A stretch of 64,000 bases of DNA from Escherichia phage vB_EcoM-ZQ3. A program made the translations under genes and the position numbers. Below are positions 31,393-44,946 of the stretch, one piece after another. Below the pieces are notes generated by a model. The model had not been told where the DNA came from and ran no database searches. It worked only from the letters and a program-made list of their open reading frames with translations. The stretch lies in the sequence record MW630116.1. The stretch is one strand, 5' to 3'. The number at the start of each line of letters is the position of its first letter. Position 1 is the first letter of the stretch.

Positions 31393-31422
31393 GTACAACA
31401 ACTATGGTCTATGATACTATAG
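31393..31422 (+). promoter_or_regulatory. T4-type early promoter
   Basis: TGTACA then gatactatagacctatcaaaac leader. Confidence 0.4.
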
Positions 31423-31448
31423 ACCTATCAAAACAAGAGGAGAATATT

Positions 31449-31676
31449 ATGAAACGTCAAATCATTAAAAACGTAACTACTGATTCAAACATCGATGAGT
31501 TTGAAGATGTTCTGTTTAATCCTGATTTAGTTGTTGTACAGAAAAACTGGACCGAATTTTTATGCTACACTGAAGTGGTTTACGTTTACGAAAAACTCGG
31601 CGATGAAATGCCTATCTATGGTATCTTCCGTGAAATCACTGAAAACGGTACAACTTATTGGAAGGAAACTTACTAA
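31449..31676 (+). CDS. hypothetical small protein
   Basis: 75 aa from ATG 31449 after RBS gaggag. Confidence 0.55.
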
Positions 31677-41669: not shown

Positions 41670-42995
41670 ATGCAATTGAATTCTCGTAATCTAAAAAGTA
41701 TTATTGATAACGAAGCCTTAGCATATGCGATGTACACCGTTGAAAACCGTGCAATCCCAAACATGATTGATGGATTTAAGCCGGTTCAACGTTTTGTGGT
41801 TCATCGTGCGTTAGATTTGGCTCGTGGTAATAAAGAAAAATTTCATAAACTTGCGTCAATTGCAGGAGGTGTTGCAGATTTAGGTTATCACCATGGTGAA
41901 TCTTCTGCACAAGATGCAGGTGCATTGATGGCTAACACATGGAACAACAACTATCCACTGTTAGATGGCCAAGGCAACTTTGGTTCTCGAACAGTCCAAA
42001 AAGCTGCAGCATCTCGTTATATTTTTGCTCGTGTAAGTAAAAATTTCTATAACGTATATAAAGATACTGAATATGCTCCAGCTCATGAAGATAAAGAACA
42101 CATTCCACCAAAATTCTATCTTCCTATTATTCCGACAGTTCTTTTGAATGGCGTCTCTGGTATTGCAACCGGTTACGCAACAAATATTCTGCCTCATAGT
42201 TTTAAATCAGTCAAAAAGGCTGTATTACAAGCTCTTCAAGGTAAAAATGTCACTAAGCCAAAAGTTGAATTCCCGGAATTCCGTGGTGAAGTACATGAAG
42301 TTGATGGGCGTTATGAGATTCACGGAACATATAAGTTCACATCTCGCACTCAAATGCAGATAACTGAAATCCCATATAAATTCGACCGTGAAACGTATGT
42401 GAGTAAGGTTCTTGACCCGTTGGAAGACAAAGGTCTAATCTCATGGGAAGATGATTGTGGTGAACACGGCTTTGGGTTTAAGGTGAAGTTCCGTAAAGAG
42501 TACTCGCTTCCTGATGATGAAGAGCTACGTCATGAAAAAATCATGAAAGATTTTAGTCTCATCGAACGTCGTTCACAAAACATCACAGTGATTAATGAAA
42601 AGGGTAAATTAGCAGTCTACGATAACGTAGTGGACTTAATCAAAGATTTTGTTGAAGTCCGTAAGACTTACGTTCAGAAACGTATTGACAACAAAATCCT
42701 TGAATCTGAAAAAGCATTTAAACTGGCTTTTGCTAAGGCACACTTCATCAAAAAAGTTATCAGTGGTGAAATTGTGATTCAGGGCAAGACTCGTAAAGCT
42801 TTGACTGAAGAGCTAGCACAAATCGAAATGTATAAAGAACATGTCGATAAACTGGTAGGTCTTAACATCTTCCATATCACTTCCGACGAAGCACGTAAAC
42901 TAGCAGAAGAAGCTAAAGCTAAGAAAGAAGAAAATGAGTATTGGAAGTCTACTGATGTTGTGACAGAGTACACTAAAGACTTGGAGGCACTTTGA
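41670..42995 (+). CDS. 52: DNA topoisomerase II medium subunit gp52 (GyrA/ParC-like)
   Basis: 441 aa; AYAMYTVENRAIPNMIDGFKPVQR N-terminal motif. Confidence 0.93.
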   Translation: MQLNSRNLKSIIDNEALAYAMYTVENRAIPNMIDGFKPVQRFVVHRALDLARGNKEKFHKLASIAGGVADLGYHHGESSAQDAGALMANTWNNNYPLLDGQGNFGSRTVQKAAASRYIFARVSKNFYNVYKDTEYAPAHEDKEHIPPKFYLPIIPTVLLNGVSGIATGYATNILPHSFKSVKKAVLQALQGKNVTKPKVEFPEFRGEVHEVDGRYEIHGTYKFTSRTQMQITEIPYKFDRETYVSKVLDPLEDKGLISWEDDCGEHGFGFKVKFRKEYSLPDDEELRHEKIMKDFSLIERRSQNITVINEKGKLAVYDNVVDLIKDFVEVRKTYVQKRIDNKILESEKAFKLAFAKAHFIKKVISGEIVIQGKTRKALTEELAQIEMYKEHVDKLVGLNIFHITSDEARKLAEEAKAKKEENEYWKSTDVVTEYTKDLEAL

Positions 42996-43071
42996 GTGCC
43001 ATAGCCTTAGGATTTCTCGGTGCAATAGCTGCACTAGTGATTTGGCTGTATTGGTTGGACAAACATGATTA

Positions 43072-43092
43072 GGGAGCTTCGGCTCCCTTTTG
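43072..43092 (+). terminator. rho-independent terminator
   Basis: gggagc-ttcg-gctccc followed by TTTTG. Confidence 0.7.
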
Positions 43093-43113
43093 TGCATTTT
43101 TCTCACAAAACAG

Positions 43114-43141
43114 TTTACACGTGCTTCAAACATGATATTAT
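43114..43141 (+). promoter_or_regulatory. T4-type early promoter
   Basis: GTTTAC ... TATTAT; leader nearly identical to 43435-43500. Confidence 0.5.
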
Positions 43142-43180
43142 AGACCTATCAAAACAAAACAACCAAATTGGAGAAATAAA

Positions 43181-43396
43181 ATGTCTAAAATGAAATTAAC
43201 CCAAAACACAACTACTCGTTTTGGTAAAGTTAAACCTGGTATGAATGCTCCCCGTAAAGCACTTGTTGAAGAATTAAATTTCTTAGAAGTTGAAATCAAT
43301 TCTTTAGTGGTTCGCGGTTCAAATGGACATCATTTAGAAAAGCTTCGTTCTAAAAAGGCAAAACTTATTGGCCTTATTAAAGAAATGAGTTTGTAA
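43181..43396 (+). CDS. hypothetical small basic protein
   Basis: 71 aa; shares promoter, leader and MSK start with motA. Confidence 0.6.
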   Translation: MSKMKLTQNTTTRFGKVKPGMNAPRKALVEELNFLEVEINSLVVRGSNGHHLEKLRSKKAKLIGLIKEMSL

Positions 43397-43434
43397 ATTT
43401 TACCAGGGCTTTTGGAAAAAGAGCCCAAAATAAA

Positions 43435-43463
43435 GTTTACTTTTGCTTCAAACATGATATTAT
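43435..43463 (+). promoter_or_regulatory. T4-type early promoter of motA
   Basis: GTTTAC ... TATTAT then tagacctatcaaaac leader. Confidence 0.5.
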
Positions 43464-43500
43464 AGACCTATCAAAACAAATACTAATTTGGAGAAATAAA

Positions 43501-44133
43501 ATGTCTAAAGTTACTTACATCATCAAAGCTTCTGAAAACGTTCTGAATGAAAAAACTGCTGCAATAATGGTTTATATCATTAAGAACAACTTCACCACTG
43601 CTGCCAATGTCCGTGAAGCTCTGGAAGCTGAATACAATGCATCAGTTGTTAACTCTAACATTGGTGTATTGATTAAGAAAGGTTTAGTCGAAAAATCTGG
43701 TGATGGACTTATAGCAACAGGCGAAGCAATGGATATTATCCAAAAAGCTGCAGACCTCTTTGCCCAAGAAAATGCTCCAGAACTTCTTCAGAAACGTAAC
43801 ACTAGAAAAGCACGTGGAGTTACTCCCGAAATGCATGAATTAGCAAACTTTGTTTTTGAAAATATTAAAGATAAAGTTGAAGTTAAAGAAATTGGTGAAA
43901 ACCGTAGTAACTTGGAAGTTCGATTTGCAAAACGAGTTCTAGGTATTCGTCAGATCGAAATTCGTCGAGATGGTTGTCTTAGAATATTTGCATACAACAT
44001 GTCAGAAACTGAATCAAAGCTGTTTACTTCTCTTGAAAATGATGTTAAGATTAAGATCGGTGGTAAATATACTTACATTGACTTCCCTAATGTGTCCAAA
44101 GAAATCATTACCCTTGTAACTAACGTACTGTGA
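43501..44133 (+). CDS. motA: middle-transcription activator MotA
   Basis: 210 aa; MSKVTYIIKAS...NSNIGVLIKKGLVEKSGDGL matches recalled T4 MotA. Confidence 0.9.
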   Translation: MSKVTYIIKASENVLNEKTAAIMVYIIKNNFTTAANVREALEAEYNASVVNSNIGVLIKKGLVEKSGDGLIATGEAMDIIQKAADLFAQENAPELLQKRNTRKARGVTPEMHELANFVFENIKDKVEVKEIGENRSNLEVRFAKRVLGIRQIEIRRDGCLRIFAYNMSETESKLFTSLENDVKIKIGGKYTYIDFPNVSKEIITLVTNVL

Positions 44134-44143
44134 GGAATACATA

Positions 44144-44488
44144 ATGAATAAGCTGAATATTATTAACGAACTTCGTAAATGTGCAGAACCTACTCAGGAA
44201 GGATGGGATATTTGGTACCACGGGGCTTATCTTGGAACTATAGTTAAAGTTAAAGCTGGGTTATATTTAATTATTCGCGAAAATTCTGAATTCCCTAATG
44301 GAGTAGCTCCTGGCGGTATACGTAAAAACTTTATGGCAGCTATCAGTTCATTTGTTGATGCAGCTTACGAAATCTATAAAGAAGATTATAAAGAATATCA
44401 GCAGTCACAACCGGTTATTCGTTCGATTGGTGTAAATAAACAAGCACAAAAATCTATTTGGCAACGTATTAAGGAATGGTTTAAATGA
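44144..44488 (+). CDS. hypothetical protein
   Basis: 114-aa ORF with RBS gagga. Confidence 0.6.
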
Positions 44489-44946
44489 AATCATTTAAAG
44501 AACGTTTAGAGCTATTAGATTTGGCCTTGTCTCGTGAGACCCCTGAAAGTCTAGCAGAAAAATTCCAGTCCTACGGTTATAATTATTCTGCTGATGATAT
44601 AATGAATGAAGTTCCTGAAATCTGTTGGCAAACGTGCTATTGGAATAATGACCAAAAAGTTCAACGTGTTATAGTATGTGCAGCTAATAGGTTTAAATTG
44701 AAGAGTGGTGGAACTCTGGTTATTCCTGGAGTTCGTCATTACTCTAAAGATATGGCTGAAGTACTTGATATAGTTGGTCCTCAATTAGTCTCGCAACAAG
44801 TTTGTGGTGACGACCAAGGCTTTATCGACCAATACTCTAATTACTGGACTCGTGAAGAAGCAATGATTATTGCAACGTATGCTGGACAGGTACGTATTGA
44901 ACGTGGCGGAAGTGAGAAAGAACTTTATTCAGAGGACCTTTATTAA
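44485..44946 (+). CDS. hypothetical protein
   Basis: 153 aa; ATGA overlap. Confidence 0.6.

Follow-up and report, generated by a model that had tools for sequence, protein, structure and literature searches.

The window, a 64,000-nt stretch of the Escherichia phage vB_EcoM-ZQ3 genome (MW630116.1), belongs to an RB69/HX01-like Mosigvirus. Downstream of its gp52/motA.1-like unit lie two genes on the same strand, ORF71 and motA, each preceded by a stem-loop and by one copy of a regulatory cassette (Table 1). The product of motA matches the N-terminal activation domain of MotA (PF09114: 1.8e-40, 137 bits, cut-off 26), its C-terminal double-wing DNA-binding domain (PF09158: 3.2e-8, 34 bits, cut-off 25) and phrog_1345 (7.8e-90). 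It begins with MSKVTYIIKAS as in T4, and the same gene is annotated motA in relatives. ORF71 also starts with MSK and encodes a basic protein (14 K+R vs. 6 D+E) that matches phrog_6200 (4e-40) and has no Pfam match. Judging by its dN/dS of 0.20-0.25 between genera, ORF71 is a real gene under purifying selection. Single copies of it are present in 93 phage records, of which 76 are Mosigvirus-like and 17 Dhakavirus, and a search of 5.8 billion proteins found only 8 close clusters. The AF2 model of the protein (pLDDT 76) has a disordered basic N-terminus and two helices, which predicts a basic helical-hairpin protein; a Foldseek search of the PDB with this model had no hit at E ≤ 0.001 and listed nothing but generic designed helical hairpins. 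The initial annotation had read the locus as a basic 71-aa ORF followed by motA, both starting MSK, a reading that the composition, the dN/dS of ~0.2 and the motA Pfam matches bear out.

Table 1. Genes, stem-loops and cassette elements at the gp52-motA locus (window positions)
Feature	Position	Strand	Description
Hairpin 1	43071-43102	+	stem-loop AGGGAGC-UUCG-GCUCCCU (43071-43088), then T-rich run; stem-loop part of cassette A
Cassette copy A	43104-43189	+	precedes ORF71; repeat alignment, promoter scans
A, -35	43113-43118	+	GTTTAC
A, spacer motif	43122-43128	+	TGCTTCA
A, extended -10	43133-43135	+	TGn
A, -10	43136-43141	+	TATTAT
A, putative transcription start	43148	+	A
A, Shine-Dalgarno	43170-43173	+	GGAG
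A, first codons	43181-43189	+	ATG-TCT-AAA
ORF71	43181-43396	+	71 aa; phrog_6200; cargo gene between the cassettes
Hairpin 2	43406-43426	+	GGGCUUUU-GGAAA-AAGAGCCC; stem-loop part of cassette B
Cassette copy B	43426-43509	+	precedes motA; repeat alignment, promoter scans, folding
B, -35	43435-43440	+	GTTTAC
B, spacer motif	43444-43450	+	TGCTTCA
B, extended -10	43455-43457	+	TGn
B, -10	43458-43463	+	TATTAT
B, putative transcription start	43470	+	A
B, Shine-Dalgarno	43490-43493	+	GGAG
B, first codons	43501-43509	+	ATG-TCT-AAA
motA	43501-44133	+	210 aa; starts MSK; activator of middle-period transcription; Pfam and phrog matches

According to promoter scans, both cassettes have the elements of a T4-type early promoter, GTTTAC, a 17-nt spacer, TGn and TATTAT, with A-rich stretches upstream (CACAAAACA and CAAAATAAA). 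The transcription starts were placed by T4/RB69 early-promoter numbering (PMC1524935). The leaders of 31-33 nt are A-rich and unstructured relative to shuffled controls (z = 0.2 for A and 0.6 for B). In both copies GGAG lies 7 nt 5' of the ATG and the identity extends through codon 3, so that the proposed duplication of a promoter-leader-start cassette holds for the promoter elements, the GGAG spacing and the first three codons alike. Strong RegB sites follow GGAGRAYARAA (PMC3014915), and GGAGAAATAAA, located in the unpaired leader, agrees with this consensus at 9/11 positions. Rfam at a permissive threshold gave only a chance miRNA match for 42900-43600 (E = 0.89). Parts of the cassette recur elsewhere. 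GTTTAC, TGn, TATTAT/TATAGT and, further downstream, an AG-CCTATCAA motif are common to many early promoters of the window. At 31411-31436, a third site agrees with the cassette -10 element and leader at 25/26 nt, and the TATAGACCTATCAAAACAACAGAGTGAA leader is also found on other promoters in Dhakavirus genomes. The matches listed for an IMG/VR scan with the 15-mer TATAGACCTATCAAA were mostly unrelated chance hits, plus a handful of T4-like contigs.

The two stem-loops fold with similar energies (hairpin 1, -12.9 kcal/mol, z = -2.65; hairpin 2, -12.2 kcal/mol, z = -2.83), but only hairpin 1 is followed by a U-run. Hairpin 1 is a predicted intrinsic terminator that would end the gp52/motA.1-like unit; its equivalent is annotated as a rho-independent terminator in SA79RD and corresponds in RB69 to the TransTerm prediction 'motA<--52' (Nolan 2006 supplement). 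Hairpin 2 is kept in six genomes of three genera, where one pair shows a compensatory change from G-C to A-U via a G-U intermediate and two more vary by one-sided change to wobble (C-G/U-G, G-C/G-U). Since it has no U-run, hairpin 2 is at most an attenuator or an RNA-end structure, and transcription started at promoter A probably continues into motA.

The Mot-box-like TGCTTCA in the promoter spacer had been described as mis-spaced relative to the -10, and this proved correct. In both copies the motif ends 7 bp 5' of the -10 (motif ends 43128/43450, -10 starts 43136/43458), whereas the MotA box, (a/t)(a/t)(a/t)TGCTTtA, is required 12±1 bp upstream of a TAnnnT -10, replacing the -35 (PMC2988021). 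No TAnnnT lies 11-13 bp from TGCTTCA in either cassette, and the 15 sites of the window that do have the correct TGCTTYA-N11-13-TAnnnT spacing (1.8 expected) all lie outside the two cassettes. A canonical MotA box, and with it a MotA-dependent middle promoter, was rejected on the spacing, the intact GTTTAC -35 and the absence of the motif in T4. Alternatively, TGCTT(C/T)A might be a working MotA site despite its position, so that the cassette would double as early promoter and MotA operator; MotA bound there, together with AsiA-modified polymerase, would shut off or modulate the early promoters of motA and ORF71. The motif does match the MotA-box core, and several early genes are over-expressed in motA mutants (PMC2988021). 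In addition, it keeps the same spacer position in both Mosigvirus and Dhakavirus cassettes and in the motA-proximal cassette of KarlGJung (Tequatrovirus), while TGCTT occurs in 0/13 other early-promoter spacers of the window. Beyond its off-register spacing, however, the motif is missing from the spacer of T4's own motA promoter and from the motA-proximal cassette of IME08, and O157 typing phage 6 reads CGCTTCA. Sister promoters carry CTCCTTTAAACATGA at this place, so that the motif looks like a variant of a spacer sub-family; bare TGCTTYA occurs 59 times in the window, and repression of early promoters by MotA DNA binding is not described in the reviews. We therefore consider a MotA operator improbable, and think it just as improbable that such an off-register operator silences both promoters with ORF71, which shares motA's promoter, leader and RegB-type site, acting as a non-essential partner in the switch from early to middle transcription or as its modulator. 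If that were the case, the frequent loss and gain of ORF71 by cassette recombination would tune the switch between hosts.

The two cassettes form a direct repeat with 87.2% identity over 86 nt (75/86). It contains an exact core of 37 nt (43122-43158 = 43444-43480), for which shuffles of the window give an expectation of 0 chance matches, and a second exact block of 22 nt at its 3' end, TTGGAGAAATAAAATGTCTAAA; the 80-nt flanks on either side fall to the background level of 47-50% identity. A segment of roughly 60 bp had initially been reported to occur twice, at 43125-43189 and 43447-43509, with at least about 80% identity expected between the copies. Base-by-base alignment of these segments gives 92.3% (60/65, one 2-nt indel), which confirms the repeat but not its extent, as it begins further upstream, at 43104 and 43426. 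Among the 15 early-promoter cassettes of the window, the A/B pair reaches a local-alignment score of 63; the runner-up pair scores 40, and the mean is 19 (sd 6.7; z = 6.6). Local alignment was used because the 2-nt indel reduces the pair to only 66% in an ungapped identity matrix, which understates the likeness. The repeat is not an artefact, because the arrangement recurs in 93 independent phage genome records.

Comparison with relatives shows that the flanked gene comes and goes. ORF71 is present in ~76 of ~155 Mosigvirus-like records matching the locus, a count that includes duplicate GenBank and RefSeq records, and about half have one cassette and no ORF71. The single cassette is joined straight to motA in RB69, ChristianSchoenbein, FL31, AV112, PTE-Eco05, O157tp6, p000y, JM10, mar007P3 and phiE142. 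Single-cassette junctions fall at at least three different points inside the repeat. Among the 11 single-cassette Mosigvirus-like genomes sampled for this comparison, 10 combine the A promoter with the A leader and have the crossover in TTGGAGAAATAAAATGTCTAAA, while RB69 joins A upstream sequence to the B leader by a crossover in the 37-nt core. In the Dhakavirus contig L006 the hairpin is that of A, whereas spacer and leader are those of B, and in T4 a B-like ribosome-binding site is joined to the promoter found in the first cassette of its relative KarlGJung. In other genera the site is filled by other small ORFs: one of 75 aa (phrog_10955) in KarlGJung and, as an extra, one of 73 aa (phrog_13302) in IME08, which comes with a cassette copy of its own. 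The junction class common to 10/11 genomes could be a single event spread by recombination of flanking genes and not the sign of a high excision rate. A search of IMG/VR with three 35-36-nt junction-type patterns gave 0, 2 and 0 loci, from a collection with too few Mosigviruses for counting. Deletion and insertion are indistinguishable from the junctions alone. Between genera, the synonymous divergence of ORF71 (dS 1.11) equals that of motA (1.12), so the two-cassette arrangement is old, and the single-cassette genomes are most simply deletions.

The copies also change together within genomes. Both Mosigvirus copies read TGCTTC/TATTAT, and the dhabil and VR5 copies read TGCTTT/TACTAT; TGCTTT occurs with TATTAT in IME08, and ACGTGT-TATTAT stands in both IME08 copies. 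Likewise, both VR5 copies have TTA and both SA79RD copies have TTT. These genome-specific substitutions common to both copies indicate gene conversion. In Mosigvirus the conversion reaches codon 3, overwriting the first codons of ORF71 with those of motA. ORF71 starts with MSK in Mosigvirus and with MNK in Dhakavirus, so the MSK start common to ORF71 and motA is a later conversion. Strong functional constraint at the promoter could nevertheless underlie some of the likeness between A and B: between genera only 2/37 core positions differ, against a dS of ~1.1 in the neighbouring coding DNA.

Could a strong T4-type early-promoter consensus, held in common by both cassettes, account for their likeness with neither duplication nor recombination between the copies? 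GTTTAC, TGn, TATTAT/TATAGT and AG-CCTATCAA are indeed spread over many promoters of the window, 25/26 nt match at 31411-31436, and the TATAGACCTATCAAAACAACAGAGTGAA leader is found on other Dhakavirus promoters. The A/B pair nevertheless stands far above all other cassette pairs in alignment score, and its identity takes in spacer bases outside the consensus as well as the leader, ribosome-binding site and three codons. Together with the substitutions common to both copies and the deletion junctions of relatives inside the repeat, this already largely refutes the consensus as the sole cause, which we regard as very unlikely. Hardly credible at all is a tandem duplication of the motA 5' end with ORF71 as a diverged motA remnant, as the MSK starts and the start codon within the repeat might suggest: ORF71 as a diverged motA fragment was rejected with a BLASTP E of 1.1, there being no similarity to MotA past three residues, the downstream flanks are 50% identical as is the background, Dhakavirus ORF71 starts MNK, and ORF71 belongs to a separate conserved family, phrog_6200.

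Instead, the copies are most probably T4-type regulatory cassettes resembling promoter-early stem-loops (PeSLs) that bracket a 322-bp single-gene module made up of ORF71, a hairpin and a promoter. The presence or absence of the module, the junctions inside the repeat and the homogenisation of the copies point to a shuffling cassette of the PeSL type, not to a one-off duplication. In this process, seen from the comparison of relatives, homologous recombination acts on the ~86-bp direct repeats. ORF71 is lost as a 320-322-bp unit when the repeats undergo unequal exchange or looping-out, and a single chimeric cassette is left behind; the ORF71 module could be inserted by the reverse reaction. Gene conversion, a non-reciprocal exchange, keeps the copies alike within each genome.

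What follows on expression in this phage (promoter activity, start sites, RegB cleavage and read-through of hairpin 2) we infer from its sequence and from what is known of T4. As in T4, each cassette would act as a strong sigma-70 early promoter, giving ORF71 and motA the same immediate-early expression burst. Hairpin 1 would insulate the locus from gp52 transcription, and read-through of hairpin 2 would provide motA with two tandem early promoters. RegB cleavage in GGAG probably shuts off both genes, as for T4 motA mRNA. Since motA is the master switch of middle transcription, it may matter that phages with the module could have two early motA promoters and those without it one. In addition, the two kinds of phage differ in the presence of an unknown co-expressed early protein. 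The locus also accounts for the one 'hypothetical protein' more that annotations of about half of the RB69-like genomes list between gene 52 and motA.

PeSLs were described by Arbiol, Comeau, Krisch and colleagues in 2010 (PMC2839356) for RB49 and phi1, where flanking PeSLs were shown to recombine, with the crossovers falling from the -10 to the Shine-Dalgarno/ATG region, and to yield excised mini-circles. Comeau, Arbiol and Krisch extended the model to T4/PST in 2014, with the promoter consensus TTTACW-N17-TAYWAT (PMC4122927). Like PeSLs, the cassettes here combine a stem-loop, an A/T-rich stretch, an early promoter, a Shine-Dalgarno and a start codon in one composite intergenic motif. Both hairpins lie 10-25 nt 5' of the -35 element, both promoters, with A/T-rich sequence upstream, agree with the PeSL form (in the hexamer framing of that paper, TTTACA-16 nt-TATTAT for copy A and the hexamer TTTACT for copy B), and both copies end in a Shine-Dalgarno and a start codon. 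As with PeSLs, repeated copies flank small ORFs of unknown function that are present, absent or replaced in close relatives, with junctions within the motif, between the -10 and SD/ATG, where those of the sequenced RB49 mini-circles also fall. Unlike PeSLs, the pair adjoins an essential core regulator, motA, and not a large hyperplastic region; the motA locus is mentioned in neither paper. Homogenisation into coding sequence is likewise described in neither, and the similarity of A and B far exceeds that of typical PeSL pairs. Hairpin 2 is without a U-run, so that the terminator half of the PeSL is weak for copy B.

The T4 motA gene itself provides a second comparison, for which we rely on the reviews of Hinton 2010 and Uzan 2010. 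It is an early gene whose mRNA is cut by RegB within the Shine-Dalgarno (PMC2988021); for its early promoter and RegB-sensitive Shine-Dalgarno we follow Uzan et al. 1990 as cited in PMC2988021, and the RegB review PMC3014915. As in the window, the T4 early promoter is directly upstream of motA, after a terminator hairpin behind gp52/motA.1, and GGAG lies in an A-rich context, the Mosigvirus RegB site being a predicted one. T4, however, has a single cassette with another spacer (no TGCTT) and another leader, in contrast to the two cassettes and the extra gene of the window. In RB69, an early promoter had already been predicted in the single equivalent cassette (Pe:162713; Nolan 2006 supplement). 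Like MotA-dependent middle promoters, the cassettes have a good extended -10 and a TGCTT(C/T)A core, with T's before it in copy B, but the box is 7 bp from the -10 and the full GTTTAC -35 is present.

A further parallel is found in the variable internal-protein (IP) loci of T-even phages (Repoila et al. 1994), as far as they are discussed in PMC2839356. In both cases, repeated elements composed of a T4-type early promoter and a weak stem-loop separate small swappable genes at a fixed locus, and, depending on the phage, the ORFs found in the gp52-motA gap belong to phrog_6200, phrog_10955 or phrog_13302. The locus and its cargo differ from the IP loci as discussed there, and the gp52-motA gap is only one to two modules deep. 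Taken together, these comparisons make the locus an ordinary but clear case of known repeated regulatory cassettes, and no new kind of element. It is a compact, well-sampled natural example of cassette-driven gene gain, loss and replacement in T4-family phages, with several independent junctions and a within-genome homogenisation that rewrites the first codons of a gene.

The initial annotation described a segment of roughly 60 bp, carrying a promoter, leader and start codon, that occurs once before a basic 71-aa ORF (ORF71; cassette A) and again before motA (cassette B). That claim was set to fail below 80% identity; aligned base by base, the segments agree at 60/65 positions (92.3%) with one 2-nt indel, and the duplication stands. 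The repeat is longer upstream than first noted, with 75/86 positions (87.2%) identical over the full cassettes of the table and a background 47-50% in the 80 nt flanking it on either side. Its exact core of 37 nt (43122-43158 and 43444-43480) had no chance equivalent in shuffles of the window. Among the 15 early-promoter cassettes in the window, the A/B pair has the top local-alignment score (63; runner-up 40, mean 19, sd 6.7), and at z = 6.6 the repeat goes beyond the likeness that T4-type early promoters share as a family. An assembly artefact is ruled out because the two-cassette arrangement recurs in 93 phage records. Over gp52-motA, identity is 98-99% with the Escherichia phages HX01, ST0, JS09 and APCEc01 and with many other members of the genus Mosigvirus, the RB69-like coliphages of the T4 family.

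Features of the gene 52-motA locus (window positions)
Feature	Position	Strand	Remark
gene 52, topoisomerase II medium subunit	41670-42995	+	
26-aa hydrophobic ORF	42992-43072	+	TTG start overlaps gene 52 stop
Hairpin 1	43071-43088	+	
Cassette A	43104-43189	+	
ORF71 (71 aa)	43181-43396	+	
Hairpin 2	43406-43426	+	
Cassette B	43426-43509	+	
motA	43501-44133	+	PF09114 and PF09158

A third, partial copy (31411-31436, +) lies upstream of the ORF at 31449-31676. It comprises the -10 element and leader (25/26 nt identical, GATACTATAGACCTATCAAAACAAGAGGAG) with a different -35 region (TGTACA), and its leader block also precedes several further early ORFs of Dhakavirus genomes (L016, L031, L087, L089). 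The neighbouring early-promoter pairs 29306/29864 and 40032/40545 (+), each bracketing a small ORF, also resemble each other more closely than the average pair (scores 39 and 38 against the mean of 19), so the pairing of cassettes around small modules seems to be a general trait of this genome.

Both copies are promoter-leader-start cassettes, as proposed, and contain GTTTAC, a 17-nt spacer, TGn, TATTAT, GGAG and ATG. In T4-type early promoters, GTTTAC occupies -36 to -31 with an A-rich stretch upstream (PMC1524935); from this numbering and the preference of RB69 for C at -3 to -1, transcription is predicted to start at A43148 and A43470. The leaders of both cassettes are A-rich, 31-33 nt long and no more stably folded than shuffled controls, with GGAG 7 nt before the ATG. 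GGAGAAATAAA fits GGAGRAYARAA, the consensus for strong RegB sites (PMC3014915), at 9/11 positions; RegB cuts T4 motA mRNA within the Shine-Dalgarno sequence (PMC2988021). Hairpin 1, the stem-loop upstream of cassette A (-12.9 kcal/mol, UUCG loop, then a T-run), is a predicted terminator and is annotated as one in SA79RD; a 2006 supplement gives RB69 an early promoter shortly before motA as well as the equivalent terminator ('motA<--52'). Hairpin 2, upstream of cassette B (-12.2 kcal/mol), is kept in three genera, one pair passing from G-C to A-U via G-U. Because it has no U-run, transcription from promoter A probably runs on into motA.

The loop of the gene 52 terminator hairpin (window 43078-43081) is reverse-complemented between close relatives, the stem being unchanged: GGGAGC-TTCG-GCTCCC in the window versus GGGAGC-CGAA-GCTCCC in RB69 (L127, about 2730) and JM10 (L133), and ...CCGAGG... 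in T4 (L126) versus ...CCTCGG... in KarlGJung (L005). This looks like a hairpin flip-flop inversion. Phage HY126 (L135, 600-740) has a mosaic intergenic region, in which a promoter and leader of Mosigvirus type come after a Dhakavirus-type terminator hairpin (GGAACCTTCGGGTTCC); the two parts meet between this hairpin and the A/T-rich stretch. The 26-aa ORF (MSAIALGFLGAIAALVIWLYWLDKHD; TTG start within cTTTGA) sits where T4 has motA.1 (49 aa, 'predicted periplasmic protein') and where Dhakavirus has a hydrophobic ORF of 34 aa; it falls below ORF-list length and is unannotated in most relatives. Following motA, ORFs of 114 aa (44144-44488, +; phrog_1594, unknown function) and 153 aa (44485-44946, +) match T4/RB69 arn.4 and arn.3, hypothetical proteins, by position. 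Several relatives annotate them as 'anti-restriction nuclease', a label that seems to have drifted from the nearby arn gene.

The Mot-box-like TGCTTCA is indeed mis-spaced, ending 7 bp upstream of the -10 element, whereas a MotA box lies 12±1 bp from it (PMC2988021); no TAnnnT occurs at 12±1 bp from TGCTTCA in the cassettes. Correctly spaced TGCTTYA-N11-13-TAnnnT occurs at 15 sites in the window against 1.8 expected from shuffles (for example 14960, 24258, 26148-, 54179 and 57323), so the phage uses canonical MotA geometry elsewhere; bare TGCTTYA occurs 59 times against 24 expected. The motif also varies: neither the spacer of T4's own motA promoter nor IME08's motA-proximal cassette contains TGCTT, the form in O157 typing phage 6 is CGCTTCA, and related promoters have CTCCTTTAAACATGA at this position. 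Given the mis-spacing and this variation, TGCTTCA is best read, as first suggested, as part of the early promoter, and an off-register MotA operator is unlikely.

ORF71 is basic (14 K+R against 6 D+E) and, like MotA, starts MSK, yet the two proteins proved unrelated on comparison. It belongs to phrog_6200 (unknown function) and has no Pfam match, and a search of 5.8 billion proteins brought up just eight clusters, each with 72% identity or more. Its AF2 model (pLDDT 76) shows two helices and a basic, disordered N-terminus, and a fold search with it returned only generic helical hairpins. A dN/dS of 0.20-0.25 between this phage and Dhakavirus relatives marks it as a real gene. Recent import is rejected, since its synonymous divergence between the genera (1.11) equals that of adjacent motA (1.12); ORF71 and motA have thus diverged side by side since before the Mosigvirus/Dhakavirus split.

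Of the records with ORF71, each of which has a single copy, 76 are Mosigvirus-like and 17 are from Dhakavirus; the Mosigvirus-like records matching the locus number about 155 in all. In RB69 and at least ten further genomes sampled, gene 52 and hairpin 1 are followed by a lone cassette and motA, and one species holds both states (PhAPEC2 with ORF71; ChristianSchoenbein, assigned to the same species, without). ORF71 reads as a dispensable early gene next to motA. The junctions lie inside the repeat, at differing points among relatives. In ten single-cassette Mosigvirus-like genomes, the A-type leader (…CAACCAAATTGGAG…) is joined to motA, placing the exchange within a 22-nt block, TTGGAGAAATAAAATGTCTAAA; RB69 combines A-type upstream sequence with a B-type leader (…ATACTAATTTGGAG…), placing it within the 37-nt core. 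In a Dhakavirus contig (L006), hairpin 1 is accompanied by the B-type spacer and leader, and in T4 the promoter known from KarlGJung's first cassette leads to a B-like ribosome-binding site. Other cargo also occurs. Tequatrovirus KarlGJung carries at the same site a 75-aa ORF (phrog_10955) that has a promoter of its own and shares a leader block with the motA cassette, and in IME08 (L004, 1633-1854) an extra 73-aa ORF (phrog_13302), preceded by an almost exact copy of the spacer and leader of cassette A, separates ORF71 from motA. The motA-proximal cassette in IME08 has a degraded -35 element, and the annotated motA there (L004, 1854-2561) is too long by 75 nt, with the conserved ATGTCTAAA start at about 1929.

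The two copies also change together. ACGTGT-TATTAT is common to both in IME08, TTA follows the -35 element in both in VR5, and SA79RD has TTT in both where window copy A has ACG. In Mosigvirus both copies read TGCTTC/TATTAT, against TGCTTT/TACTAT in those of dhabil and VR5, while IME08 mixes TGCTTT with TATTAT. The shared Mosigvirus tract takes in the ribosome-binding site and ATG-TCT-AAA, which is why ORF71 starts MSK there, as MotA does, versus MNK in Dhakavirus. Together with the junctions within the repeat, these shared substitutions point to gene conversion and repeated unequal exchange between the copies. Such exchange would remove the 320-322-bp module and could re-insert it.

Such behaviour is that of the promoter-early stem-loop (PeSL) cassettes of T4-type phages, in which a stem-loop and an A/T-rich stretch are combined with an early promoter and SD/ATG, and which flank ORFs differing between close relatives (PMC2839356). 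In RB49/phi1, inverse PCR detected excised mini-circles, and PeSL crossovers fell in the interval from the -10 element to SD/ATG (PMC2839356); the model was extended to T4/PST, with promoter consensus TTTACW-N17-TAYWAT (PMC4122927). Neither PMC2839356 nor PMC4122927 mentions the motA locus or copy homogenisation. The locus is a clean, well-sampled illustration, with multiple junction classes and conversion running into coding sequence. Otherwise near-identical phages probably differ in motA transcript structure, and they do differ in whether an unknown, probably co-expressed protein is present. The motA-locus cassettes have every sequence-testable PeSL feature and are classed as a PeSL-type pair flanking ORF71 next to motA.
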